Assembly (NCBI GenBank): GCA_035536375.1
Contig: DATLOH010000053.1
Coordinates: 1-59,909 of the forward strand
Reading direction: 5' to 3'
DNA length: 59,909 nt
Source of the DNA: Acidimicrobiales bacterium
Lineage (GTDB): Bacteria; Actinomycetota; Acidimicrobiia; Acidimicrobiales; JACCXE01
In this document: in pieces, positions 8,138 to 41,191 of the stretch
Layout of the letters: the number at the start of each line of letters is the position of its first letter
Numbering within the stretch: the first letter of the stretch is position 1
The notes under the pieces: generated by a model
Told to the model about the DNA's origin: nothing
The model's database searches: none
The model's input: only the letters and a program-made list of their open reading frames with translations
Translations under genes and position numbers: made by a program

Positions 8138-10003
8138 CGCCGACCCGTTTGACGCTGCGAGCTTGTTCTCTGCGAAGGGTTTAAGCGTGAACGCGAAGGT
8201 CGTTCCTCCGCCGGGCGCGCTCTCGAAGTAGATCGTGCCGCCTTGGGCCTCGACGAACCGTTTCGTCAGCGCCAGCCCGAGGCCTGTCGACGCCTGGCCA
8301 CGCTGCGGGTCGTTCCCCTTTACCCGGTAGAAGGGCTCGAAGATGCGATCGCGCGCCTCCTCGGGAATTCCGATGCCGTGGTCACGCACCCGTACGACGA
8401 CCTCGCCATCTTCCGCCGCCGCCGACAGCTCGACCTTGCCTCCCGGTGGCGTGTACTTCACGGCGTTGTCGACGAGGTTCAAGACGATTTCGCGCAGTCG
8501 CCGCGCATCGGCCGACACCGTCGGCACGTCGCGGGCCACGTTGATCGACACTTTCAGCGCACCCGCCTGTGCCAGCCCTTCGATCGTGCGACGGAGATCC
8601 TTGACGACGTCCTTGAGCCGGACCTCGTCGAGGTCGACGTCGAGACGGCCGGCTTCGGCTTTCGAGAGTTCCAGCAAGTCGTTGATAAGTGAGAGGAGTT
8701 GCTCGCTCGAAGCCAGGATCGTCTTGGCGACCTCCTCCGGCGGCTGGTCGGCGAACTTCGGGTTGAGCATCATCATCGTCTGGCTGCGGATGACCGCCAG
8801 CGGCGTGCGGAGGTCGTGGCTCACGGCCGCAAAGAACTCCGTGCGCTCCTTGAGTAGTCGGTGGACCTCCTCGGTGCGTTGAGCGACGCGCAATTCGAGC
8901 GTCTCGTACAGCGCTTGGAGCTGATCGGCCATCTGGTTGACGCCGCGCGCGACCTCGCCGAGCTCGTCGTTGCTCACGACCGGAGCGCGCGCCGACAGAT
9001 CGCCATGACCGAGCGCGCGGTTGGTGGCGACGAGCGGTCGCAGCTGAGCGAGGATCGACCGCGACAGCAGCGCGCCGATACCGATCACTCCGAGCATCAC
9101 GAGGAGGGTGATCAATCCGAGGCGCTGTGCCGTGCTGCGCACCGATGCGTTGACGGTGTCGGCGGGCACGGTGGCCGCGAGGGTACCGACCCGTTCACCC
9201 TGAACCTCGAGCGGCCCGTACAGAGTGGCGACCTCGAGGTCGCCACTCCTTCCGAGCCGGCGGACCAACCGTCCATCGCCCGGCGCTGCGGGCGCGGTCG
9301 TGTCCGAAGCGAGGCCGGAACGAGCGAGCAACCGACCGTCGGCACCATAGATTGCAGCTCCGGCGCGGCTTCGGTCGCCGAGCCCGCTGTTGCCCGCCGC
9401 TTCGGCTGTGAGGCGGTCGATCGACAGACCGACGATCGCGACTCCACGCGCGCCGTCGTCACACCTCGCTGGATTCGGGCAGATAGGAGCGGCGATCGCG
9501 AGGAGGTGCTGGTCTGCCTCGTTCACGAAACCGGCGCGCCGAGCACCGCCAACGTCGCCAAGGGCGGTTTTGACGAACTCGTGCGTGTTCCAGCGACCGC
9601 CGTGGCGCGCCTCGGTCTGGCTCTTCGAGCTCACCCTCCGGAGCTCTGCGATTGCCACGCCCGCGGCATCGGTTGCGACGAGGAGTGTCACGTCGGTCTT
9701 CAGCGCGAGCACTGACCCGAGGAGTGTTTCGACGGCGCGCCGGTCTCGCCTCGCGATCGCGTCGCCCATTCCCTGGATGTTCGTCGCAAAGTTGGCGGAC
9801 TCGACCAGGTAAAGCTCGCGGTCGTGGGCCATCGACCGCGCCTCAAACGAGCGGCGAGCAAGGTCGCGGTCAAGTGCCTCCTGCGCGCTGACCGAGAGAT
9901 CGCGCACGATGAAGTAGGCCCCAAGCGACCCGAAGATCACGATCAGCGCGAGGAAGGGGAGCAGCAGCTTCCAGAACAGCGGTAGGTCGCGAACCCGACG
10001 CAC
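8129..10003 (-). CDS. sensor histidine kinase (two TM segments, large extracytoplasmic domain, HAMP, HisKA, HATPase_c)
   Basis: 624-aa ORF with H-box FFAAVSHDLRTPL, N-box LVDNAVKYT and G-boxes DHGIGIP / GLGLAL. GTG start lies 4 nt after the upstream stop, with AGGAGA overlapping that stop. Confidence 0.9.
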   Translation of the reverse strand: MRRVRDLPLFWKLLLPFLALIVIFGSLGAYFIVRDLSVSAQEALDRDLARRSFEARSMAHDRELYLVESANFATNIQGMGDAIARRDRRAVETLLGSVLALKTDVTLLVATDAAGVAIAELRRVSSKSQTEARHGGRWNTHEFVKTALGDVGGARRAGFVNEADQHLLAIAAPICPNPARCDDGARGVAIVGLSIDRLTAEAAGNSGLGDRSRAGAAIYGADGRLLARSGLASDTTAPAAPGDGRLVRRLGRSGDLEVATLYGPLEVQGERVGTLAATVPADTVNASVRSTAQRLGLITLLVMLGVIGIGALLSRSILAQLRPLVATNRALGHGDLSARAPVVSNDELGEVARGVNQMADQLQALYETLELRVAQRTEEVHRLLKERTEFFAAVSHDLRTPLAVIRSQTMMMLNPKFADQPPEEVAKTILASSEQLLSLINDLLELSKAEAGRLDVDLDEVRLKDVVKDLRRTIEGLAQAGALKVSINVARDVPTVSADARRLREIVLNLVDNAVKYTPPGGKVELSAAAEDGEVVVRVRDHGIGIPEEARDRIFEPFYRVKGNDPQRGQASTGLGLALTKRFVEAQGGTIYFESAPGGGTTFAFTLKPFAENKLAASNGSASR

Positions 10004-30378: not shown

Positions 30379-30470
30379 GTGAGGTCGGGTCATCGTAGTA
30401 GTGCGGGTCGCGGGAGCCGACATGACCAGGGATGCTCAGGACGCGGCGCCAACGGCCGATGAATGGGGTG

Positions 30471-32840
30471 ATGACACGCGCCCGTACCCGTCGTGGTCTG
30501 CTGGCGGCCGTCCTGCTCGGCGCGGCTGTTGGGGGATGGATTGCTGGCGCGCGTCCGGCCAGCGCGGCGATCACGTCGGCAACTCCGTCGCCGACTTCGG
30601 TTCTTGCGGCGCCCGACTACGCCACTGCTACCTACGGTGACGCGTGGGACTACGCGAACGCCGAGGACTTCGACAGCGCGCTTAAAAGCTGGATGGTCGG
30701 CGCCAGCAACGTGACGTCGCAGAACGGAATGCTCTCGTTCGACATGACGCGGATGGGCCAGTTGCCGCTGGTGCGCGGCTTCGGCGATATCACCATCCCG
30801 TGGGGCCGCGATGCCAGCCTCAACCCGATCCCGGCGGCGACGTACACGCGATTGTCCTTCCGCATGAACGCGCAGATCAGCCAGCCGACGTCTGGTCAGG
30901 TTGTATGGATGAACTGCGGCAACTTCGTGCACGAGTGCCACGGCGGCCAACCGATCACCATTAACCCCGGCTGGCACACCTACGACATCGCACTCGCCAA
31001 CCAGTACAACGACCTACCCGCGGCGTGGGCGGGTCAGATTCACTCACTCGTCATCGTGCCCGTTGGCGCCAACCTCGCCTCCGGTCACATCGATCTCGAC
31101 TGGGCGCGTCTGTATCAAGCCGGCGCGCCGGTAGCGGTCGACCTCGCCGACTCCAACCCCGGCGGGCGTGTGACCGCTTCGTGGTCGGCCGCGCCCGGCG
31201 CCGACTACGCCGCGACCGCGAATCGCGCCGCGGTGTTCGCTTCGACGACGTCGTCGTCGACCACGAGAGTCAACTTCAACGCCCCCGCGTACCCGCCCGG
31301 CACGTACAGGTTCTACGGGACCGACACCGATGGAACCTCGTCGGCTCCCGGCCCGCCACTGACCATCGGCGCCCGCGTCAACACCTCGAAGCTGTTGCCT
31401 GAGGTGCCCAGCGGGGCCGACTACGCGTCGACCGTCCGCGGCGACGCGTGGGATTTCGCTCAGACGTCCGACGTCAAGTCGTCACTCAACGCTGCGCTGT
31501 CCTTCGACGGCCAGCTCCTGCACGGGCGCAACGCGGCGCCCTACCAGAACGACCCGTGGGTCGAGCTGCCGGTGGCGCCGCCCATCGACGGAAGCCGGTT
31601 CCACCGCCTCAGCATGCGGGTGCACTTCGACGGCGACTTCCGGCTCACCGACGACGCAGGGGGAGGCATGAACGCCCGCGTCTACTGGGGCACGACCAAT
31701 TCCGCCGAGGACCAGGTGAGCCAGGACATTCTCGTTTACCCCGGCTGGCAGACGATCACGTTCGACATGTCAGCACCCCAGCTCCACGACGAGGGTCAGC
31801 CGGGCACAACCCGGCAAGGTTGGGTCGGGCGCCAGATCAAGTGGTTCCGCATCGACCCCAATGAGGACCGCGGTGAGCGGACGTGGGCGATCGACTGGGT
31901 GCGACTCGGGGGTACGAGCCCGTTCGGCTCCTTCGACGCGGCGCAGCGCGTTGCTGGCGGCATCGCTGTCGGTGGGTGGGCGATCGACGCCGACACTGTG
32001 AACCCTATCCCGGTGCACGTTTACGTCGGCTCGAGCGCGCACGGCGTGCTCGCGAGCGACCGCCGGCCGGACGTGGCCGCGGTCTATCCGGCGTATGGAC
32101 AGGAGCACGGCTTCAATACGGTGGTACCCGCAGCGCCCGGTCGCCACCGCGTATGCGTTTACGGCATCAACCAAGGAGCGGGGGCCAACAGTGCCCTCGG
32201 CTGTCGTGACGTAACGGTCGACTCGCAACCGTTCGGTTCTTTCGACCGTGCGGCGCGGGTCGCGGGAGGGATCTCTGTCGGCGGTTGGGCGATCGACGCC
32301 GACACCGCAGCGTCGACCACCGTGCACGTCTACGTCGATCATGTGGGGCACGCCATCGACGCATCTGGCTTCCGTCCCGACGTCGGCGCCGCCTTCCCCT
32401 CATACGGCTTGGCACACGGCTTCGATGCGGTTGTCCCGGCGGCGCCGGGTGAGCACAACGTGTGTACGTACGCCATCAACGTCAGTTACGGATCGCATGT
32501 CGGGCTCGCGTGCCGAACAGTGACCGTCGACCCGATGCCGTTCGGCTCGCTCGACATCGTTTCGCGGACAAGCGACGGCATCCGAGTTGCGGGCTGGGCG
32601 ATCGATCCCGACACCGCCGCTCCAATCCCGGTGCACGTCTACGTCGACACCGCCGGGCACAACCTCGGCGACGCCGCGCTACCACGAGCGGATGTTGCCG
32701 CGGCGTTCCCGTCCTACGGAACAAATCACGGGTACGACACGGTCGTTCCCGCAGGCGCCGGACCGCGAACCGTGTGCGCGTACGGCATCAACCAGGGTGC
32801 GGGGGGCAACGTGAAGATCGGCTGTCGCCGCATCGAGTGA
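30471..32840 (+). CDS. large secreted repeat protein: two ~210-aa N-terminal modules plus three tandem 103-aa C-terminal modules
   Basis: Signal MTRARTRRGLLAAVLLGAAVGGWIAGARPASA. Repeated DYA(T/S)...GDAWD(Y/F)A modules. Three 309-bp in-frame repeats at 31920-32837. Start could be ATG 30459 or 30471. Confidence 0.7.
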   Translation: MTRARTRRGLLAAVLLGAAVGGWIAGARPASAAITSATPSPTSVLAAPDYATATYGDAWDYANAEDFDSALKSWMVGASNVTSQNGMLSFDMTRMGQLPLVRGFGDITIPWGRDASLNPIPAATYTRLSFRMNAQISQPTSGQVVWMNCGNFVHECHGGQPITINPGWHTYDIALANQYNDLPAAWAGQIHSLVIVPVGANLASGHIDLDWARLYQAGAPVAVDLADSNPGGRVTASWSAAPGADYAATANRAAVFASTTSSSTTRVNFNAPAYPPGTYRFYGTDTDGTSSAPGPPLTIGARVNTSKLLPEVPSGADYASTVRGDAWDFAQTSDVKSSLNAALSFDGQLLHGRNAAPYQNDPWVELPVAPPIDGSRFHRLSMRVHFDGDFRLTDDAGGGMNARVYWGTTNSAEDQVSQDILVYPGWQTITFDMSAPQLHDEGQPGTTRQGWVGRQIKWFRIDPNEDRGERTWAIDWVRLGGTSPFGSFDAAQRVAGGIAVGGWAIDADTVNPIPVHVYVGSSAHGVLASDRRPDVAAVYPAYGQEHGFNTVVPAAPGRHRVCVYGINQGAGANSALGCRDVTVDSQPFGSFDRAARVAGGISVGGWAIDADTAASTTVHVYVDHVGHAIDASGFRPDVGAAFPSYGLAHGFDAVVPAAPGEHNVCTYAINVSYGSHVGLACRTVTVDPMPFGSLDIVSRTSDGIRVAGWAIDPDTAAPIPVHVYVDTAGHNLGDAALPRADVAAAFPSYGTNHGYDTVVPAGAGPRTVCAYGINQGAGGNVKIGCRRIE

Positions 32841-32884: not shown

Positions 32885-34399
32885 ATGGGAACTCTCTCGG
32901 AACGCAACCCGTCGCTATGGGTAGGCACGACCGACCCGGCGCCCTATGCGCCACTCGACGGCGACACCTCGGCTGACGTGGTCGTGATCGGTGCAGGCAT
33001 CGCCGGGCTCACCACTGCGAGGCTCCTCGCTGCCGAAGGAAGACGGGTCGCGGTGGTCGACGCCGGATCGGTCTGCGCCGGGGCAACGGGATACACCACC
33101 GCCAAAGTGACCTCACTGCACACGTTGATCTACGCGCAGCTCGAGAAGTCTTTCGACGCTGACACTGCAGCGATCTACGGGGCCGCCAACGAGGCGGCAA
33201 TCCATCGGATCGTGGAGCTGACGGCTAACGACGAGATCGACTGCGAGCTCGAACAGGCGGCGGCGTACACGTACACGCTCCAGGCGGAAAACCTTCCGGA
33301 CATAGAGGCGGAGGTGAACGCCGCGACGCGTGCCGGTCTCAGCGCGGCGTTCACGACAGAGACCGATCTGCCGTACGACGTGCTCGGCGCAGTCCGCGTC
33401 GACGGGCAGTACCAGTTCCACCCGCGCAAGTACTGCCTTGGTCTCGCACAGGCGATCGTGCGCGACGGAGGCTCGGTGCACGACCACACCCGTGCGCTGG
33501 AAGTCGACGAGGACACCCACACGGTGACTACCGATCGCGGCACCATCAGCGCGGGTGACGTGGTAATTGCTTCGCACCAGCCGTTTCCCTTGCACGGCGG
33601 GTACTTCGCACGCGCCGAGCCGTGGCGTTCCTACGTCCTCGCGCTCTCCGTCGATGGGCCCCGGCCGGAAGGGATGTACATCAGCTGCGACGAGCAGACC
33701 CGCTCGGTACGGTCGACTGCGGCTGGACATGTGCTCGTTGGTGGCGAGGGGCACAAGGTCGGTCACGACGACGACACCGAGGCCAACTACGCGCGCCTCG
33801 AGTCATGGGCGCGCGAGACGTTTCCGGTGACGTCCGTCGAGTATCGGTGGTCGGCGCAGGACTACAAGACTCCCGACGGCCTGCCTTACATCGGTCGCAT
33901 GACCCCAGGGTCAGACCATGTCTACGTGGCGACGGGATTTCGGAAGTGGGGGATGACGAACGGCACGGTGGCAGCGATGATCCTCGCCGACACCATCGCC
34001 GGACGCGAGAACCCGTGGTCATCGACATTCGATTCCCACCGGTCCTCGATAGCGCAAAGCATCAAGGGTCTGATCAGCGAGAACCTCGACGTCGCCAAAC
34101 GCTTTATCGGTGACCGCATCGCGTCGCTGCACCCAGCGTCGATTGACGACCTGTCGACCGGTCAGGGCGCCATCGTCGACCTCGACGGCGAGAAGGTGGC
34201 CGCGTTCCGCGACGACAACGGCACTGTGCACGCAGTCTCGGCCAACTGCACACACATGGGGTGCCGCGTGAACTTCAACCCGGCTGAGCGCAGTTGGGAC
34301 TGCCCGTGCCACGGCTCGCGCTTCGGCATCGACGGCAGCGTGCTCGAAGGCCCCGCAACCAAGGACCTCGCCCCCGCAACACCCGTCCGCCGCATGTGA
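32885..34399 (+). CDS. FAD-dependent oxidoreductase fused to a C-terminal Rieske [2Fe-2S] domain
   Basis: ATG 32885. Dinucleotide fold VVVIGAGIAGLTTA. Rieske motifs CTHMGC...CPCHGS. The track ORF start at 32462 lies inside the previous gene. Confidence 0.85.
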   Translation: MGTLSERNPSLWVGTTDPAPYAPLDGDTSADVVVIGAGIAGLTTARLLAAEGRRVAVVDAGSVCAGATGYTTAKVTSLHTLIYAQLEKSFDADTAAIYGAANEAAIHRIVELTANDEIDCELEQAAAYTYTLQAENLPDIEAEVNAATRAGLSAAFTTETDLPYDVLGAVRVDGQYQFHPRKYCLGLAQAIVRDGGSVHDHTRALEVDEDTHTVTTDRGTISAGDVVIASHQPFPLHGGYFARAEPWRSYVLALSVDGPRPEGMYISCDEQTRSVRSTAAGHVLVGGEGHKVGHDDDTEANYARLESWARETFPVTSVEYRWSAQDYKTPDGLPYIGRMTPGSDHVYVATGFRKWGMTNGTVAAMILADTIAGRENPWSSTFDSHRSSIAQSIKGLISENLDVAKRFIGDRIASLHPASIDDLSTGQGAIVDLDGEKVAAFRDDNGTVHAVSANCTHMGCRVNFNPAERSWDCPCHGSRFGIDGSVLEGPATKDLAPATPVRRM

Positions 34400-34418: not shown

Positions 34419-34438
34419 ATGTTAGGTGCACCTAACAT
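34419..34438. promoter_or_regulatory. perfect 20-nt palindrome ATGTTAGGTGCACCTAACAT, putative operator 12 nt upstream of the ATG
   Basis: Read directly from the sequence. A near-identical copy lies at 38128-38149. Contains the TAACAT -10-like hexamer. Confidence 0.6.
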
Positions 34439-34450
34439 TAGGATCGCTCG

Positions 34451-35497
34451 ATGCTCACAAGACGTGCTGCCATCCTCGTCGCCGCCGTCCTTTCGGCGAC
34501 GTTGGTCGGCTGCGGAGACGACAACAACGACACGGACGCGTCCCAGCGTGCGAAAGCGAAGACCGGAAGCCTGACGGTGTACTCCGGGCGCAACGAGAAC
34601 CTTATCCGGCCGTTGCTCGACAAATTCGAGAAGGACACCCGCATCGAGGTCGATGTGAAGTACGGCGACACGGCTGAGCTGCTCCCGACGGTTATCGAAG
34701 AGGGCGAGCGCTCGCCCGCCGACGTCTTCATCTCCCAGGACGCCGGATCGCTCGGTGAACTCGCCGAAAAGGGACTGCTTGCACCGCTCCCACTCGACGT
34801 CATAAACGACGTTGACGAGCGCTTCCGCGACGATCAGCGCCGTTGGGTCGGACTCTCCGGGCGCGCCCGCGTCGTGGTCGTCAACACCGATCGCGTTCCC
34901 GCGGCCGAGCGACCTTCGAAAATCGACGACGTACTCGCCCCGAAGTGGAAGGGCCGCATCGGGTTCGCCCCCACCAACGCGAGTTTCGTTGCGTTCGTGT
35001 CAGCGTTGCGCAACCAACGCGGCGAGCCTGCCGCTCGCAAGTTCCTCGAGGGTCTAAAGGCCAACGGAGCGCGCGCCTTCGACAGCAACCTCCTCGTCGT
35101 GCAGGCGGTGGCGCGCGGCGAGGTAGACCTTGGACTGGTCAACCACTACTACCTGTACTCGGTGAAGAAGGAAACTCCGAACGCCCCAATTGAGAACGTC
35201 TTCACCGATCAGGACGCGGCTGACCAAGGGATGTTCGTGAACGTCGCAGGTGTGGGCGTGCTGCGCACCGCAAAGCACGTTCCGGAGGCGACCCGCTTGG
35301 TGCGTTACCTGCTTTCGGAGTCGGCCCAAACGTATTTCCGCGACAAGACCAGCGAGTATCCGCTGGCTGCCGGCGTCACCGCCATTGCGGAGCTACCGCC
35401 GTTGAACTCGTTGCGGACGCCTCCTGTTCCCCTGGGTCGCCTCGGCGGCGGTCTCGACGCGAGCGTGACCTTGATCAAGGACCTCGGCCTGTCCTGA
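34451..35497 (+). CDS. Fe(III)-type ABC transporter substrate-binding lipoprotein (FbpA/AfuA-like)
   Basis: 348-aa ORF with lipobox LVGC. LTVYSGRNENLIRPLLDKFEKDTRIEV... is typical of ferric-binding SBPs. AGGA lies upstream. Confidence 0.85.
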   Translation: MLTRRAAILVAAVLSATLVGCGDDNNDTDASQRAKAKTGSLTVYSGRNENLIRPLLDKFEKDTRIEVDVKYGDTAELLPTVIEEGERSPADVFISQDAGSLGELAEKGLLAPLPLDVINDVDERFRDDQRRWVGLSGRARVVVVNTDRVPAAERPSKIDDVLAPKWKGRIGFAPTNASFVAFVSALRNQRGEPAARKFLEGLKANGARAFDSNLLVVQAVARGEVDLGLVNHYYLYSVKKETPNAPIENVFTDQDAADQGMFVNVAGVGVLRTAKHVPEATRLVRYLLSESAQTYFRDKTSEYPLAAGVTAIAELPPLNSLRTPPVPLGRLGGGLDASVTLIKDLGLS

Positions 35498-35619
35498 CCG
35501 AGCCGCACCCGTCCGACGCGCCACCGCTCGTCGCCACGTCCACACCGCGCCGATCGTTCGCGTCGAGCCGGCACGCACCGGCCGCGGTCTGGGTTCCCGC
35601 ATGTCTCGTCGGGCTCGCC

Positions 35620-37098
35620 ATGGTCGTGCCCCTCGGGTACCTGCTGTTGCGCAGCACCGAAGCGAGCGATCCTCTGGCGCTGCTGACGAGTGACCGCGTG
35701 CTCCGTTTCCTGTCGACGACCCTGCGCCTCGCAGGGGTTGTCACCGTCGTGTCGGTCGCATTGGGAGGAACGCTGGCGTGGCTCCTCGAGCGGACCGACC
35801 TGCCCGGTCGGCGGGTGCTCGCAGTGGTGGCCGTGCTGCCTCTCGTCGTACCGACCTACGTGCTCGCACTTGCGCTTGTGAGCGCTGTTGGTCCTGGCGG
35901 GCTCGTCGCGTCGTGGTCGTGGGTGCGCGGGTTCTGGGGGGCGACCGTGGCGCTTGTAGCGGCCACCATGCCAACGGTCGTGCTTCTCGGCCGAGCTGAA
36001 CTGGCCGGTACAGACGGTTCCTTTGACGATGCCGCCCGCGCACTCGGGGACAGCGCACTGACACGCTGGCGTCGTCTCGTGATTCCTCAGCTTCGGCCTG
36101 CACTCGGGGCCGGGGGCCTGCTCTGTTTCCTTTATGTGCTGTCGGACTTTGGGGCGGTCTCGATCCTTGGAGTCGACACGCTGAACCGGGGGATCTACTT
36201 CGAGTACCGGTCGCTGAGTTCGGACCGGTCGAGCGCCGCGGTTCTCGGCGTCCTGCTCGTCGCGCTCAGCATCGCCGTGATCGCCGTGGAGCGAGCGGTG
36301 CGCCGCCGCGGGGCGGCGCAGGCGATTCCGAGTGCGCCGGTGCCGTATCCAGTGACGCACCTAGGTCGGTGGCGCTGGCCGGCCGCGGCCGCAGTGGCGC
36401 TGGTGGGGCTTGCGGCCGCGGGTGGGCCCGTCGCAGTCCTGATCGTGTGGGCCTACCGGGGCACCAGCGGCCCGGATGCGATCGCAGAGTTGATTGACGC
36501 CGGCCGCACGTCGCTGTCGTGGTCGGCGGCCGCAGCGCTCCTTGCGGTAGCCGCCGCATTGCCGGTCGCGATCCTGGCGGTGCGATTCCGGTCGCGCGCC
36601 GCGCGCGTCATCGAAACCGCGGCTGTCGCCGGGTTCGCACTCCCGGGGCTCGTCGTGGCGCTCGCACTCGTCTTTATGACACTGCGGGTGGCGCCAGTCG
36701 TGTATCAAACAGGGCTTGTCGTGGTCGCCGCCTACGTCGTGCGTTTCCTGCCCGAAGCTCTGGGTGCCGTACGACCGGCAGTCGCGGCGGTCGATCCGGC
36801 GGTCGAGGACGCAGCGCGCGCGCTTGGCCGCGGTCGAGCTGCGGTGCTCGCCACTGTGACGCTGCCGCTCGTTCGAGGCGGCGCGCTTGCCGGCGGGTCG
36901 CTGGTGTTCCTCACTGCGATGAAGGAGCTACCGGCAACGTTGCTCCTCCAGCCGCCGGGTTCGGACACGCTCGCTGTGCGCGTGTGGACTGCGGCATCCG
37001 AGGGGTTCTATGCGCGCGCCGCGCTGCCCGCGCTCGCACTCGTCGTGCTGTCTGCCGCGCTGCTCGCGCCCCTACGGTTCGGAGGGCCGCGCCGATGA
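35620..37098 (+). CDS. iron ABC transporter permease (duplicated FbpB-type). True start possibly upstream at a non-canonical codon.
   Basis: 492-aa ORF with two permease halves (two EAA-type loops: DAARALGDS and EDAARALGRG). 122 nt upstream are open in-frame and encode the rest of TM1. Confidence 0.85.
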   Translation: MVVPLGYLLLRSTEASDPLALLTSDRVLRFLSTTLRLAGVVTVVSVALGGTLAWLLERTDLPGRRVLAVVAVLPLVVPTYVLALALVSAVGPGGLVASWSWVRGFWGATVALVAATMPTVVLLGRAELAGTDGSFDDAARALGDSALTRWRRLVIPQLRPALGAGGLLCFLYVLSDFGAVSILGVDTLNRGIYFEYRSLSSDRSSAAVLGVLLVALSIAVIAVERAVRRRGAAQAIPSAPVPYPVTHLGRWRWPAAAAVALVGLAAAGGPVAVLIVWAYRGTSGPDAIAELIDAGRTSLSWSAAAALLAVAAALPVAILAVRFRSRAARVIETAAVAGFALPGLVVALALVFMTLRVAPVVYQTGLVVVAAYVVRFLPEALGAVRPAVAAVDPAVEDAARALGRGRAAVLATVTLPLVRGGALAGGSLVFLTAMKELPATLLLQPPGSDTLAVRVWTAASEGFYARAALPALALVVLSAALLAPLRFGGPRR

Positions 37099-38111
37099 GC
37101 GTCGAGTTGCGAGGGGTCAGTCGGAGCTTCGGCGAGATAACGGCGGTGCGCGACGTTTCCCTCACCGTGCCGACCGGGTCGATCGTCGCGCTGCTCGGGC
37201 CGAGCGGATGCGGCAAGACGACAACTCTCCGCGTCGTCGCCGGCTTCGAAACGCCGGACGCGGGCACCGTGACGGTCGGCGGCCGCATCGTCGCCGGGCC
37301 GGGCGCGTGGGTCCCACCCGAACGCCGTCGCGTCGGCATGGTCTTCCAGCAGCTAGCGCTGTTCCCGCACATGAACGTCGGAGGCAACGTCGGCTACGGG
37401 CTGCGAGGGATGAGCCGGGCCGCCCGAGCCGACCGAGTCAAAGCGATGCTCGAACTCGTCGACCTGGCCGGTTATGAGCGGCGTCGCCCCGAACAGCTCT
37501 CAGGCGGCGAGGCGCAGCGTGTCGCCGTTGCGCGCGCGCTCGCCCCGGCGCCGGACGTCGTGCTGCTGGACGAGCCATTCTCGAGCCTTGATGTCGGTCT
37601 GCGCGTCGATGTGCGCGAACAGGTGGTGCGAATCCTGCGCGAGGCGGGTGCCACCGCGATTCTCGTGACGCACGACCAGGACGAGGCACTGTCGCTGGGC
37701 GACGAGGTGGTGGTGATGCTCGGCGGAGCAGTCGCGCAGGCCGGCGCTCCCGAGAGTGTCTACCGCCAACCCGCCTCGGCGGCAGTCGCCGAGTTCCTCG
37801 GCGATGCCAACTTGCTGGACGGCGAGGTCACTGGCGGACGCCTCGCCAGCGTGGTCGGGCCGCTCACGGTCGACGCGCGCGACGGACACGCCACGGCGCT
37901 GGTGCGGCCGGAGGATCTGGATCTCATCGAGGATGACGACGGGACCGCCGAGGTGAGAGAGGTCCAATACTTCGGGCACGATCAGCTGGTGACCCTGTCG
38001 GTGGGCGGGGCCACCGTGCGGGCCCGCCTCCACGCGCAGCGCCGGTTCTCGCTCGGCGCCCGCGTGCGCATCGTCGTCAGAGACGACCGGGCGGTCGCGT
38101 TCTCGCAATGA
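37095..38111 (+). CDS. ABC transporter ATP-binding protein (FbpC/PotA-like with C-terminal TOBE-type domain)
   Basis: ATG 37095 overlaps the permease stop (ATGA). Walker A GPSGCGKTT, signature LSGGEAQR, Walker B VVLLDEPFS. Confidence 0.9.
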   Translation: MSVELRGVSRSFGEITAVRDVSLTVPTGSIVALLGPSGCGKTTTLRVVAGFETPDAGTVTVGGRIVAGPGAWVPPERRRVGMVFQQLALFPHMNVGGNVGYGLRGMSRAARADRVKAMLELVDLAGYERRRPEQLSGGEAQRVAVARALAPAPDVVLLDEPFSSLDVGLRVDVREQVVRILREAGATAILVTHDQDEALSLGDEVVVMLGGAVAQAGAPESVYRQPASAAVAEFLGDANLLDGEVTGGRLASVVGPLTVDARDGHATALVRPEDLDLIEDDDGTAEVREVQYFGHDQLVTLSVGGATVRARLHAQRRFSLGARVRIVVRDDRAVAFSQ

Positions 38112-38127
38112 CCTCCGCGTTGCGCTG

Positions 38128-38149
38128 AATGTTAGGTGCGCCTAACATT
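38128..38149. promoter_or_regulatory. 22-nt palindrome AATGTTAGGTGCGCCTAACATT, second copy of the putative operator, core ends 11 nt upstream of the ATG
   Basis: Identical to the 34419 site except for one central base (GCAC to GCGC). Confidence 0.6.
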
Positions 38150-38159
38150 TGGTGAGCGC

Positions 38160-40664
38160 ATGTCGATCACCTCACTTCCGTCCACGCGCGTTCCGCTCGG
38201 CCCTCTCTTTGCCGCTGACCTGGCGCGCCATGGAGAGCGCGTCGCTCTCAGGACCACAGACGAGGCGATCACCTATGCCGCGCTCGACGGGCGTGTTCAG
38301 AGCGTCGCTGACCGGCTAGGCGTGGGGCGTCGGCTCGTGATGATCACCGCGACCAACACGATCGACTTCGTCGTCAATTACCTCGGTGCCCTGCGGGGTG
38401 GTCACGTCGTGCTTCTAGCTGCCGGCGACGTCGCGGTCACGGCATCGATTGCGGAGCGCTACGACCCTGACGTCGTGATCGGCCCGGATACGGCGTGGTG
38501 TATCGACGAGCAACGCGCTGCGACCGCGCACGATCCGCATCCCGACTTGGCGTTGCTCGTCTCGACGTCGGGGACGACGGGCTCGGCGAAACTCGTGCGG
38601 CTGTCGTCGGACAACCTTCAGGCCAACGCGGCCGCGATTGCGCAGTACCTCGAACTCACCCCTGACGATCGGGCGATGACGACGTTGCCGCTGCAGTACT
38701 GCTACGGCCTGTCGGTGCTCAACAGCCACATGCTCGCCGGCGCAAGCGTCGTACTGACGGAGCTGTCGGTGGTGGACCGCTGCTTCTGGGATTTGTTCGC
38801 GCAGACAAGCGCAACGAGCTTCGCGGGTGTACCCCATACCTTCGATTTGCTCGAACGGGTGGGCTTCGAGGCGATGTCGTTGCCGACGTTGCGCTACATC
38901 ACCCAGGCGGGTGGCCGCATGCATCCCGACAAGGTGAGGCGATTTGCACAGCTCGCCGAAGGCGGGGGGTGGCAGCTGTTCGTCATGTACGGCCAAACCG
39001 AGGCCACCGCTCGCATCGCCTATCTCCCGCCCGCCCTTGCCGCGTCGCGCCCAGGTGCCATCGGCGTCCCCGTGCCAGGCGGCTCGTTGACGATCGACTC
39101 TCCCGACGGGAGCGGCGTCGGAGAGCTCGTCTACCGCGGACCAAACGTGATGCTCGGCTATGCGGAGCATCAGGCCGATCTTGCGCTCGGCCGCGCAGTC
39201 ACGGAACTTCGCACGGGTGACATCGGGCGCGTCACCCCCGACGGTCTGTTCGAAATCGTCGGCCGGTCGAGTCGGTTCACCAAGCTGTACGGGCTGCGCA
39301 TCGATCTCGACCGCATGGAAGAGATCCTTGCTCGGCGCGGAGTGACGAGCATGTGCACAGCCGAGGACGAGCACAGCGTTGTCGCTGCAGTCACGTCGGC
39401 CGACGCAGCCGCTCTTGCGCAATCAATCGTTCCGGCGGAGATGAAAGTTCCGGCCTCGGCCGTGCGGGTAGTCGTGCTCGACGAGTTGCCCAGATTGGCG
39501 AACGGCAAGCCCGCTTACCTCGAGGTTCGGCGCCTCGCTGCCGAGCAGGCTGGTCACTGCGCGTCGAGGGAAGGCCCGCCGACCGTGAGCGGCGCCTTCG
39601 CCGAAGTTCTCGGGGTGACGCCGGGAGACGGTGATTCGTTTGTCAGTCTCGGCGGCGACTCGCTGTCGTATGTCGAGATGTCACTTCGCCTCGAAGCATC
39701 CGTTGGCGACCTGCCGCGCAACTGGCACTTGATGCCCGTGCGCGACCTCGTTGCGCGCGCGCCTGCCGCTCGTCATCGGTGGTTCGCCCGAACTGACTCC
39801 AGCGTCGTGCTGCGCGCCGTCGCCATCGTTCTGGTCGTCGGGACACACGCGAGGCTTTGGCACCTCCCGGGCGGGGCGCACACGTTGCTCGTCGTCGCCG
39901 GATACAACTTCGCCCGCTTCCAACTCGCGGCCCCCAGCATGGTCGCGAGCATCGCCCGCGTCGCAGTGCCGAGCATGTGCTGGATCGCAGTGGTCGCCGC
40001 TTTAAGTGGCAAGTACGGCTGGGAACACGCGTTGCTGATCAACGGTCATATCGGAGCGCCCGAGTCGCGCTCGGGCTATTGGTTCATCGAGGCGCTGGTG
40101 CAAATCCTTGTCCCCCTAGCGCTGTTGCTGAGCGTGCCGAGAGTGCGACGCGCGGAGCGCCGGCGGCCGTGGTTGTTTGCGTGCGCGGTGCTCGGGCTTG
40201 CGTTGGCCATTCGATTCGACCTGCTTCTCAATGGCGACGGCGCGGCCAACATCGCGCGCCCGCACGAAGTGCTCTGGCTCTTCGCTCTTGGTTGGGCGGC
40301 AAGCTGCGTGACCGGCACTCGCCCGGTGATTGCACGACTGGCGCTTTCTGCGGTCGGTTGGTTCGCCCTGTCGGGGTTTTTCAACAGCCCGTCGCGCGGC
40401 CTCATCGTCTTTGCCGGCTTACTCCTGGTTCTCTGGGTCCCGTCGCTGCCGGTACCGCGTGCTGCAACTCGCCTCGTGGGCGCAGTCGCGGCGGCCTCGC
40501 TGTACATCTACCTCAGTCACTGGCAACTGTTTCCGGTGCTCGAACGCGTTCAAGGGTCGGCGCTCGCCGTGGTCGGATCGGTCGTCGCAGGTATCGCGTT
40601 GTGGAGCGTGGCCCGGCGCCTCATTGCTCTGGCCGAAGCGCGCCTCGTCCCTCGCGCGCCGTAG
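38160..40664 (+). CDS. tri-domain protein: ANL adenylation domain, phosphopantetheine carrier (PCP) domain, acyltransferase-3-like integral membrane domain
   Basis: Adenylation motifs STSGTTGSAK, YGQTE, GDIGR, GRSSRFTKLYGLRI and NGKP. Carrier motif LGGDSLS. About 8-10 TM segments with LRAVAIVLVVGTH and SLYIYLSHW. Start placed at ATG 38160. Confidence 0.8.
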   Translation: MSITSLPSTRVPLGPLFAADLARHGERVALRTTDEAITYAALDGRVQSVADRLGVGRRLVMITATNTIDFVVNYLGALRGGHVVLLAAGDVAVTASIAERYDPDVVIGPDTAWCIDEQRAATAHDPHPDLALLVSTSGTTGSAKLVRLSSDNLQANAAAIAQYLELTPDDRAMTTLPLQYCYGLSVLNSHMLAGASVVLTELSVVDRCFWDLFAQTSATSFAGVPHTFDLLERVGFEAMSLPTLRYITQAGGRMHPDKVRRFAQLAEGGGWQLFVMYGQTEATARIAYLPPALAASRPGAIGVPVPGGSLTIDSPDGSGVGELVYRGPNVMLGYAEHQADLALGRAVTELRTGDIGRVTPDGLFEIVGRSSRFTKLYGLRIDLDRMEEILARRGVTSMCTAEDEHSVVAAVTSADAAALAQSIVPAEMKVPASAVRVVVLDELPRLANGKPAYLEVRRLAAEQAGHCASREGPPTVSGAFAEVLGVTPGDGDSFVSLGGDSLSYVEMSLRLEASVGDLPRNWHLMPVRDLVARAPAARHRWFARTDSSVVLRAVAIVLVVGTHARLWHLPGGAHTLLVVAGYNFARFQLAAPSMVASIARVAVPSMCWIAVVAALSGKYGWEHALLINGHIGAPESRSGYWFIEALVQILVPLALLLSVPRVRRAERRRPWLFACAVLGLALAIRFDLLLNGDGAANIARPHEVLWLFALGWAASCVTGTRPVIARLALSAVGWFALSGFFNSPSRGLIVFAGLLLVLWVPSLPVPRAATRLVGAVAAASLYIYLSHWQLFPVLERVQGSALAVVGSVVAGIALWSVARRLIALAEARLVPRAP

Positions 40665-40669
40665 CGACG

Positions 40670-41191
40670 CTACAAGCCGGTCACGCCGTCGATCTGCTCC
40701 CGCAGGATGTCGGCGTGGCCGTTGTGCCTTGCGGTCTCCTCGAGCATGTGCACCATGATCCAGCGCAGCGTCGGCCGGAACGGCGCTCCAGGCACGCGCC
40801 GGTTCACCACGTTGCCACGACCGGTGTCGCCGAGTTCGGCGGTGCCCACCACAACGCGCGAGCGCTCGCATGTGTCGAGGTAGACGTCGACGACGTCACC
40901 ACTTGTCTCGCCGGTCCGCGATACGAAGTCCTCCGCGCTGTTGGGCCTGGGCAGTACCGCCGCTGCTCCACCGAACACCTCGCCGAACCAGTAGTGCTCG
41001 GCGAACGCGAGGTGCTTCACGAGACCGAGCAGGCTCGTGCCCGACGCCACCATCGGTCGCCACGCGTCGTGCTCGGCGAGACCATCGACCTTCCGCAGGA
41101 TCGTGGCGCGGTGAAAGTCGAGCCAGCCGCAGAGCATCTCCTTCTCGGCCGCGTCGATCGACGGCTCGGTGCGTTCGAAGGGCGCGGGCAC
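40670..41191 (-). CDS. DinB/DUF664 family protein (mycothiol-transferase-like four-helix bundle)
   Basis: 173-aa ORF. LDFHRATILRKVDGL...LVKHLAFAEHYWF...HNGHADILRE is the typical DinB_2/DUF664 pattern. Confidence 0.75.
   Translation of the reverse strand: MPAPFERTEPSIDAAEKEMLCGWLDFHRATILRKVDGLAEHDAWRPMVASGTSLLGLVKHLAFAEHYWFGEVFGGAAAVLPRPNSAEDFVSRTGETSGDVVDVYLDTCERSRVVVGTAELGDTGRGNVVNRRVPGAPFRPTLRWIMVHMLEETARHNGHADILREQIDGVTGL

Follow-up and report, generated by a model that had tools for sequence, protein, structure and literature searches.

What controls two adjacent transcription units of an Acidimicrobiales bacterium that each begin just behind a copy of nearly the same palindrome, and why would an iron transporter and an acylating enzyme share it? 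In the window (the whole stretch of 59,909 nt that was analysed), the perfect 20-bp palindrome ATGTTAGGTGCACCTAACAT was located at 34419–34438, exactly where the original prediction had placed it. Both strands matched with 0 mismatches, and 12 nt separated its end from the fbpA start codon (ATG, 34451). We designated this site operator 1 (predicted; no strand assigned), with a 14-bp core, TTAGGTGCACCTAA, at 34422–34435. The second copy, expected to have one central base changed, was confirmed as ATGTTAGGTGCGCCTAACAT at 38129–38148, or AATGTTAGGTGCGCCTAACATT at 38128–38149. This predicted operator 2, likewise without strand, had its core, TTAGGTGCGCCTAA, at 38132–38145, lay within the 48-nt gap from fbpC to the A-PCP-AT3 gene, and ended 11 nt before the ATG of the latter (38160). 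At both sites, 10 of 10 core bases matched a pair of inverted pentamers, TTAGG and CCTAA, 4 bp apart. None of 100 dinucleotide-preserving shuffles matched the palindrome, and no copies were expected by chance. A relaxed search of the window with TGTTAGGNNNNCCTAACA (up to 3 mismatches) gave no third copy, as had been claimed, and scanning it for the 10 core bases (up to 2 mismatches) gave elsewhere only three poor matches with 2 mismatches.

Operator 1 precedes three genes on the forward strand. The fbpA gene (34451..35497) encodes the lipoprotein that binds ferric iron for an FbpABC-type ABC transporter: an FbpA-type binding protein (Pfam SBP_bac_6/11/1/8) behind a lipoprotein-type signal peptide. 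Its product matched the ferric-iron-binding protein of PDB 7w3w with an E value of 7.9e-70 and retained the NHYY tyrosine pair; for Thermus FbpA (3wae/4elo) the E value was about 3e-55. The fbpB gene (35620..37098) encodes a two-domain permease (BPD_transp_1 in two stretches), and fbpC (37095..38111) an ATPase (ABC_tran and TOBE_2), whose candidate start ATG at 37095 overlaps the fbpB stop codon (ATGA). The three genes thus contain what identifies an FbpABC system: an FbpA/HitA/SfuA homologue with the iron-binding Tyr-Tyr pair, a two-domain permease and a TOBE-domain ATPase. The same gene order was found in the syntenic locus L001, where the fbpC orthologue encodes 338 aa.

Operator 2 precedes the A-PCP-AT3 gene (38160..40664, forward strand), whose 834-aa product combines adenylation, carrier and 10-TM-type acyltransferase_3 domains in one protein (Pfam AMP-binding, PP-binding and Acyl_transf_3). 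K450 of the A10 motif, GGDS with S501, and R552-X10-H563 were invariant in 24 orthologues. No NCBIfam model recognized the protein at its cut-off; the adenylation domain was best matched by acyl-CoA-ligase-type models, all far below their cut-offs. In D-alanylation by DltABCD, an adenylating enzyme, a carrier protein and a polytopic membrane acyltransferase work together. A-PCP-AT3 follows the same logic, in that a carrier-bound acyl group would move to an acceptor outside the cytoplasm; however, it fuses all three parts in one polypeptide, and its membrane part is an AT3 domain and not an MBOAT. The comparison concerns enzyme logic and implies no link of Dlt to iron control. A-PCP-AT3 is an uncharacterised enzyme and a conserved member of the predicted iron regulon described below.

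The window core, TTAGG-N4-CCTAA, is the published single-dimer site of IdeR/DtxR. In the 19-bp iron box (TTAGGTTAGSCTAACCTAA), each IdeR dimer contacts CCTAA repeats 1 and 3 or 2 and 4, the contacted pentamers being 4 bp apart (PMC8464063). The original prediction had called the spacing in the window non-canonical relative to the iron box; this had to be corrected, since a 4-bp gap between pentamers is the normal spacing within one dimer. EMSA with Saccharopolyspora IdeR showed that the 14-bp site TTAGGNNNNCCTAA was bound by one dimer with a KD of 78–102 nM (PMC8464063), and TTAGGNNNNCCTAA was proposed as the redefined IdeR/DtxR consensus (Marcos-Torres et al. 2021, PMC8464063). The window sites share with the iron box the pentamers and the 4-bp gap of one dimer's two contacts, a position over the promoters of iron-uptake genes and, as the likely binder, an IdeR-like three-domain protein. 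They differ in lacking the second, overlapping dimer site and in a palindrome that extends to 18–20 bp (RTRTTAGG...CCTAAYAY). The full box, with four CCTAA repeats for two dimers, had no match at up to 4 mismatches in the window, and at the same threshold it was absent from L001, L002, L004, L165–168, L172 and L035; the sole exception among the Acidimicrobiia loci was one 4-mismatch overlap in L164. Whereas the one-dimer form alone was seen in the Acidimicrobiia loci examined, in Saccharopolyspora it is a rare exception, found at nuo, with its function unknown as reported in 2021 (PMC8464063).

The same 14-bp core occurs in an archaeon. The ChIP-seq motif of Haloferax volcanii TroR is TTTAGGC-NNN-CCTAAAA; through tandem copies spaced by about 30 bp, the iron uptake genes under TroR control are repressed in an iron-dependent manner (PMC10783522). 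Tandem boxes were likewise found in L002 and L164 (26 bp) and in L004 (29 bp). Unlike the boxes described here, the TroR motif is semi-palindromic, has A/T-rich flanks and belongs to TATA/BRE promoters, where it is found about 100 nt ahead of start codons.

We then compared the surroundings of the box in other genomes. It precedes A-PCP-AT3 orthologues in 8 further Acidimicrobiales genomes (L001, L002/3, L004/5, L010, L164, L165, L166 with a symmetric variant core, and L167), even where no transporter is nearby. In L001, AATATTAGGCGCGCCTAATATT occupies the same position before fbpA, and boxes also precede fbpA homologues in L015, L027, L029, L035, L059 and L172. Across 190 kb of Acidimicrobiales A-PCP-AT3 loci there were 10 perfect cores and 2 with one mismatch, and each of the 12 was followed directly by fbpA or A-PCP-AT3; no perfect core occurred in the distant control loci (523 kb). 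Three more distant A-PCP-AT3 homologues have 19-bp-like iron boxes instead, exactly at their starts. The distance from box to start codon varies in some loci, being about 50 nt in L002 and L164 and 45–90 nt before some fbpA and siderophore-interacting protein (SIP) genes.

A scan of 185,579 species genomes (GTDB) for exact matches yielded 78 stretches, 20 of them in Actinomycetota; the pattern was built from the window sites, so the flanking and spacer positions of these matches are not independent evidence. All 20 Actinomycetota matches lie just upstream of genes: the FTR1 iron permease (12), FbpA (5), SIP (1), A-PCP-AT3 (1) and a glyoxalase (1). The gap from box to FTR1 start is 7–15 nt. In other phyla the box precedes FeoA/FeoB, FTR1 and multicopper oxidases. 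Like an iron box, it stands at the promoters of genes for acquiring or storing iron: FbpA in the window, and FTR1, FbpA, SIP, FeoAB and Peripla_BP_2/ABM genes elsewhere. Of the 20 Actinomycetota matches, 19 precede iron-related or A-PCP-AT3 genes.

The window itself encodes no cognate regulator, in agreement with the original prediction: tblastn found no DtxR-family gene in it, and Pfam found no regulator among about 39 of its ORFs. We assume that a DtxR/IdeR-family regulator is encoded elsewhere in the genome. DtxR-family genes were present in 7 of the 78 matched stretches and in 0 of 88 controls, and in L041 the box lies directly before such a gene. Acidimicrobiia share a 222-aa IdeR-like protein, 75–80% conserved, whose best PDB match is Mycobacterium tuberculosis IdeR (E 3e-40). 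Its gene adjoins the fbp operon in two loci, L035 and L172, and has Peripla_BP_2/ABM/SIP genes as neighbours in L168. The latter locus contains three boxes, and the regulator gene follows one of them at a distance of 66 nt. This protein is probably the binder of the boxes. It differs from IdeR in two primary-site metal ligands (M10 to E, C102 to G) and in base-contacting residues (Q43 to E, T40 to A); its metal and exact DNA specificity cannot be read from IdeR.

On this evidence, each palindrome is very probably a single-dimer operator of a DtxR/IdeR-family metalloregulator that places the two units under shared iron-responsive control. The core is kept before both gene types in other Acidimicrobiales, Actinomycetota boxes stand almost only before iron-uptake genes, and DtxR-family regulator genes co-localise with boxes; the shared metal-responsive operator of the original prediction, over the Fe ABC operon and the acylation gene, is therefore supported in silico. 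A DtxR-family operator could instead answer to manganese or another metal, through an MntR-like paralogue or the IdeR-like protein acting as a Mn sensor: the Acidimicrobiia regulator is acidic where Bacillus subtilis MntR has ligands (E at IdeR positions 10 and 13), it is without the sulphur ligands M10 and C102 of iron sensors, its automatic JGI name is 'DtxR family Mn-dependent transcriptional regulator', and several archaeal DtxR-family neighbours of boxes align better to MntR than to IdeR. However, the regulator sequence is far nearer to IdeR (E 3e-40) than to MntR (E 1e-6), and Haloferax TroR, despite its name, is an iron regulator using the same core (PMC10783522). Among the 25 most frequent families of 92 flanking ORFs, there was no NRAMP (MntH) or MntABC/ZnuA-type Mn transporter, and the commonest were iron-specific (FTR1, FbpA-type, FeoAB, SIP and the Peripla_BP_2/ABM cluster). 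We consider manganese or another metal improbable as the signal, and iron the likelier one.

Two further explanations dispense with a DNA-binding protein or with regulation altogether. Hairpins in the RNA, acting to terminate or stabilise transcripts from upstream, would suit the position of both sites 17–20 nt after a stop codon (that of a DAO-Rieske gene for site 1, that of fbpC for site 2), the predicted folds of −19.1 kcal/mol (z −3.0) and −27.0 kcal/mol (z −3.6), and a site 2 stem that runs a few pairs past the palindrome in the window and in L001. Yet no U-tract or T-run follows either site and a terminator scan found none; between genomes, the bases TTAGG/CCTAA themselves are retained and not merely their pairing. 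The box also has a divergent neighbour, and so lies downstream of nothing, in L011, L018, L053, L073, L002 and L164, and it keeps within a narrow range of distances from the start codon that follows. We regard the hairpins as very unlikely to be the explanation, and a dispersed repeat (REP/MITE-like) or chance duplication without regulatory role as slightly less credible still. The two copies are near-identical and palindromic, and the pattern recurs within single Porphyromonas genomes (L025/L032/L076; L007/L044), where it may be a repeat; but the window holds just two copies in 60 kb, both at gene starts, the DNA around the box differs between them, and all 20 Actinomycetota matches are promoter-proximal, with 19 before iron-related or A-PCP-AT3 genes.

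For the operator for a single dimer, the sequence around the start codons suggests how it might act. A candidate −10 hexamer, TAGGAT (TANNNT; 34439..34444, forward strand), lies 6 nt before the fbpA ATG, and L001 shares the string TAGGATCGCTCGATG unchanged with the window; with this −10, the fbpA transcript would be leaderless or nearly so. An alternative candidate is TAACAT inside operator 1 (34433–34438). Its use as a −10, part of the original prediction, fits the FTR1 genes, in most of which the box ends 7–10 nt before the start codon. A simple scan with the sigma-70 consensus found no promoter. One winged-helix domain would recognise TTAGG and another CCTAA; the 4 bp between these half-sites are the spacing of the two pentamers contacted by a single IdeR dimer. 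Each operator would overlap or abut the −10 region, with the transcription start on the start codon or only a few bases ahead of it, so that the metal-loaded repressor, most likely carrying Fe2+, would block RNA polymerase. We infer promoter occlusion as the mechanism. Under iron scarcity the repressor would release both promoters, and fbpABC for ferric-iron uptake and A-PCP-AT3, although separate units, would be derepressed together.

The switch itself is of an ordinary kind, here in an uncultured Acidimicrobiales bacterium. A bolder reading, which we offer tentatively and think rather more likely wrong than right, is that A-PCP-AT3 is a transmembrane acyltransferase induced by iron starvation and fed by a carrier protein, an analogue of the Dlt logic that is built on AT3 and contained in one polypeptide. 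In the same reading, the class-wide IdeR-like protein, without the M10 and C102 ligands, would sense iron via a different ligand set and act through single dimers only. The enzyme may activate a carboxylic acid in the cytoplasm and transfer it to an extracellular acceptor, possibly a polymer of the envelope or a chelator that is secreted or bound to the surface. If so, it would belong to a previously unrecognised iron-acquisition or envelope-remodelling response of Acidimicrobiia and some other Actinomycetota; the box gives a first physiological handle on the function of this widespread three-domain enzyme.

Our literature search found no paper describing iron regulation in Acidimicrobiia. We propose a testable rule for this class: genes whose start codon has TTAGG-N4-CCTAA only a few bases away are iron-repressed. 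With it, iron regulons could be annotated in metagenome-assembled genomes. If single-dimer sites are the default, this would also bear on how DtxR-family proteins repress without a two-dimer clamp. Acidimicrobiia, most of them uncultured, are abundant in soil, in freshwater and marine habitats and in wastewater.

Two near-identical palindromes precede adjacent genes in the window. Operator 1, tgATGTTAGGTGCACCTAACATtaggatcgctcgATG (34419-34438), is a perfect 20-bp palindrome between a DAO-Rieske flavoprotein gene (32885-34399) and fbpA (34451-35497) of the ferric-iron ABC transporter operon. Operator 2, tgaATGTTAGGTGCGCCTAACATttggtgagcgcATG (38129-38148), lies between fbpC (37095-38111) and the gene for an 834-aa protein with adenylation, carrier and acyltransferase_3 domains (A-PCP-AT3; 38160-40664); fbpB occupies 35620-37098. 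Genes were assigned with Pfam (AMP-binding, PP-binding and Acyl_transf_3 for A-PCP-AT3), and start codons were checked. Re-reading the sequences agreed with the original observation that the palindromes differ at one central base, and the distances to the start codons were again 12 nt (site 1) and 11 nt (site 2). No further copy had been seen in the window, and a search at up to three mismatches likewise returned these two sites only; 0 of 100 dinucleotide-preserving shuffles matched. Looser motif searches of the window gave no further credible copy, and a literature search for the exact palindrome sequence gave no relevant paper.

The window FbpA was similar to PDB 7w3w (E 7.9e-70) and Thermus FbpA (~3e-55) and kept the Tyr-Tyr pair; judged by these alignments, it is a true ferric-iron binding protein. 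An exact-sequence database look-up of this protein found no record. A DAO-family FAD oxidoreductase gene accompanies fbpA in the window and in three other loci (L001 3884-5395; L015 2047-3822, putative; L029 1-1083). It is a Rieske fusion in the window and L001, and the DAO domain alone was confirmed in L029. The gene is co-directional with fbpA in the window and L001, and divergent in L015 and L029, where the two genes share the boxed intergenic region. Further upstream in the window, an 802-aa ORF (30432-32840) has high third-position G+C and no match in Pfam or NCBIfam.

The conserved core of the window sites is TTAGG-N4-CCTAA, here called the box. Saccharopolyspora IdeR was crystallised on the 19-bp box, and in these structures each subunit reads one CCTAA repeat; a probe with one dimer's two repeats only bound one IdeR dimer (KD ~78 nM), and the authors proposed the 14-bp TTAGGNNNNCCTAA as a redefined IdeR consensus (PMC8464063). 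The window motif matches this single-dimer consensus exactly. It also shares its core with TTTAGGC-NNN-CCTAAAA, the motif that ChIP-seq gave for TroR, the iron regulator of Haloferax volcanii; this motif mediates iron-dependent repression and often occurs in tandem, ~30 bp apart (PMC10783522). The spacing had been described as non-canonical; because it matches the published one-dimer consensus and the TroR core, it is instead the ordinary spacing within one dimer. As operators, the window palindromes are an already-known kind of site. Unlike the 19-bp IdeR box, they lack the second, overlapping dimer site, and no 19-bp box was found at up to four mismatches in the window or most related Acidimicrobiia loci. 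That the Acidimicrobiia loci examined showed single-dimer boxes only is one of the more interesting points of this analysis.

The box was conserved with both genes. In the syntenic locus L001 (A-PCP-AT3 identity 71%), AATATTAGGCGCGCCTAATATT stands upstream of fbpA and A-PCP-AT3 alike, and the string TAGGATCGCTCGATG 3' of the first box is the same as in the window. Two boxes precede the A-PCP-AT3 gene in L002/L003 and L164 (60-61% identity; 26 bp apart) and in L004/L005 (61%; 29 bp apart), with the transporter absent nearby. One-mismatch boxes were found in L165 and L167 (59% and 53%), a symmetric variant, TTAAG-N4-CTTAA, 4 nt 5' of the ATG in L166 (58%), and a box 9 nt 5' of the gene in L010 (56%). 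These Acidimicrobiales loci (190 kb) contained ten perfect and two one-mismatch cores, all directly 5' of fbpA or A-PCP-AT3. A metagenome scan for A-PCP-AT3 relatives returned mainly distant homologues or A-domain-only matches, and the box was absent from most of them; outside Acidimicrobiales, box and gene are therefore not universally linked. The perfect core was found 0 times in 523 kb of these more distant loci. Just three iron boxes of the 19-bp-like form, with 3-4 mismatches, were present in the same 523 kb (L084, L088 and L092); each coincides with the beginning of the A-PCP-AT3 homologue, suggesting that iron-box control recurs in lineages with two-dimer boxes.

Two small features were observed beside these genes. 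In L004, an uncalled 65-codon ORF (9800-9997) starts within the second box and fills the space from there towards A-PCP-AT3. Its product includes CGADARCGNC, similar to the C-terminal half of a Bfd-type [2Fe-2S] motif. A convergent mycothiol-S-transferase/DinB gene lies just 3' of the A-PCP-AT3 gene in the window (40670-41191, minus strand), and the same neighbour is present in L001 (12485-13006), the closest relative of the window.

The best homologues of the window A-PCP-AT3 came from Acidimicrobiales MAGs (at most 71% identity). Invariant in 24 orthologues were the lysine of the A10 motif (K450), the carrier-domain serine of GGDS (S501) and, where the AT3 domain begins, an R-X10-H pair (R552 and H563), so all three modules look functional. 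Acyl-CoA-ligase-type models matched the adenylation domain best, every one far below cut-off. Its PDB and NCBIfam matches, which included oxalate, malonate and fatty-acid ligases as well as NRPS A domains, were too weak and mixed for a substrate prediction. By analogy, the architecture suggests that a carrier-bound acyl group is transferred across the membrane. This logic resembles that of the Dlt pathway, with an AT3 domain instead. A literature search for A-PCP-AT3 fusions gave no relevant match; the putative conserved iron-box control of this uncharacterised enzyme is another of the more interesting points.

To survey the box in other genomes, 185,579 species genomes were scanned once with TRTTAGGYGCRCCTAAYA, giving 78 stretches, 20 of them from Acidimicrobiia or unclassified Actinomycetota. 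Directly downstream of the box in these 20 loci were an FTR1/EfeU-type iron permease (12 loci, gap 7-15 nt), an FbpA homologue (five), and a siderophore-interacting protein, A-PCP-AT3 and a glyoxalase-family gene (one each). FeoA/FeoB or FTR1 followed the box in other phyla. In five of the six Eremiobacterota matches, the box directly adjoins the ATG of a gene for a secreted multicopper oxidase with a ZIP-like C-terminal region. The 18-bp box is 0-1 nt from the ATG in these five genomes (L016 4132-6021; L052, L062, L068, L081), and the C-terminal part of the ~625-aa secreted protein matches the ZIP transporter family weakly; the protein may be a ferroxidase-permease fusion controlled by a DtxR-type regulator.

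The remaining matches were considered noise: Clostridia, Bacteroides and Porphyromonas copies, and singletons in unrelated phyla. Five Clostridia sites (L030, L042, L047, L057, L066) lie within adenylate kinase genes and translate as LLGAPN, a coding coincidence showing that the 18-bp pattern by itself is no proof of an operator. The Bacteroides sites, from six species (L006, L014, L028, L033, L045, L071), represent one orthologous locus beside a NamZ_C-domain gene. In Porphyromonas the exact pattern is repeated within single genomes (L025, L032 and L076; L007 and L044 in another) and also occurs in L050 and L083; these copies may belong to a repeat element or to a local regulon. Boxed FTR1, fbpA or A-PCP-AT3 genes in several loci have an alpha/beta-hydrolase gene beside them or in divergent orientation (L011 6086-6994, L018, L053, L073, L167 8899-9894, L001 5436-6233). 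Their products share 30-42% identity over ~100 residues and therefore form no single clear orthologous group; they were not counted as a single regulon member.

Before most FTR1 genes, 7-10 nt separate the end of the box from the start codon, so that TAACAT/TAATAT (the right half-site plus one base) lies 6-9 nt 5' of the start. In actinobacterial promoters, that spacing is that of the TANNNT -10 hexamer of a leaderless or near-leaderless transcript. At site 1, TAGGAT (34439-34444) immediately follows the box, 6 nt 5' of the ATG, and is kept in L001; at site 2, TAACAT is 11 nt 5' of the ATG. A dimer bound at either window site would cover the -10 region. A sigma-70 promoter scan of the window (G+C ~66%) gave no matches, which is common in high-G+C Actinomycetota and uninformative. 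The palindromes might also act as RNA hairpins; this is unlikely, since no U-tract follows them, conservation is of the sequence and not of the pairing, and divergent intergenic regions carry the box as well.

In line with the original statement, no cognate regulator was detected in the window by Pfam (~39 ORFs) or by tblastn with DtxR-family proteins. Regulator genes elsewhere were sought with IdeR, MntR and Fur probes, and the IdeR alignment was re-checked against PDB 1fx7. DtxR-family genes were found within 7 of the 78 box-bearing stretches (574 kb) and in none of the 88 control loci, which total 713 kb. The box is directly 5' of a DtxR-family regulator gene in an Eisenbacteria contig, and the order in a Bathyarchaeota contig is box, FTR1, regulator. 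A Microthrix match led to a 222-aa IdeR-like protein with 75-80% identity across Acidimicrobiia (P0121-P0240, e.g. P0172; L035 841-1518; L168 5001-5669). Among solved structures, M. tuberculosis IdeR is the closest to it (1fx7, E 3e-40), with MntR far behind (E 1e-6). In both L035 (Microthrix) and L172 (an Acidimicrobiales genome of 4.5 Mb), its gene adjoins the boxed fbp operon.

The IdeR-like protein keeps S37, P39, H79, E83, H98, E105 and H106 of IdeR and carries M10→E, C102→G, T40→A, Q43→E, L12→C and R13→E. Neither its metal nor its fine DNA specificity can therefore be assumed to follow IdeR, and the changes at M10, C102, L12 and R13 imply a primary metal site built otherwise than in IdeR/DtxR. 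This altered ligand set, read from the alignment, is a further point of interest. That metal and DNA specificity need not follow IdeR is the main reason to keep the idea that the box-binding regulator senses manganese, which we consider improbable; the regulon content favours iron. The original reading of both palindromes as a shared DtxR/IdeR-type metal-responsive operator, probably for iron, is supported in silico by the box kept before the same genes, the iron-gene regulon and the DtxR-family genes nearby.

In marine Acidimicrobiia (L168-171), Peripla_BP_2, ABM monooxygenase and SIP genes lie downstream of the IdeR-like gene. This locus carries three boxes: one 66 nt 5' of the regulator gene, one immediately next to the start of the Peripla_BP_2 gene, and one 45 nt 5' of SIP. 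A Cys/His-rich ORF (CSACGH...WTCDACGCGHH) at L168 4690-4920 (minus strand) reaches beyond a called 170-aa gene, and its apparent ATG is supplied by the flank of the box 5' of the regulator gene.
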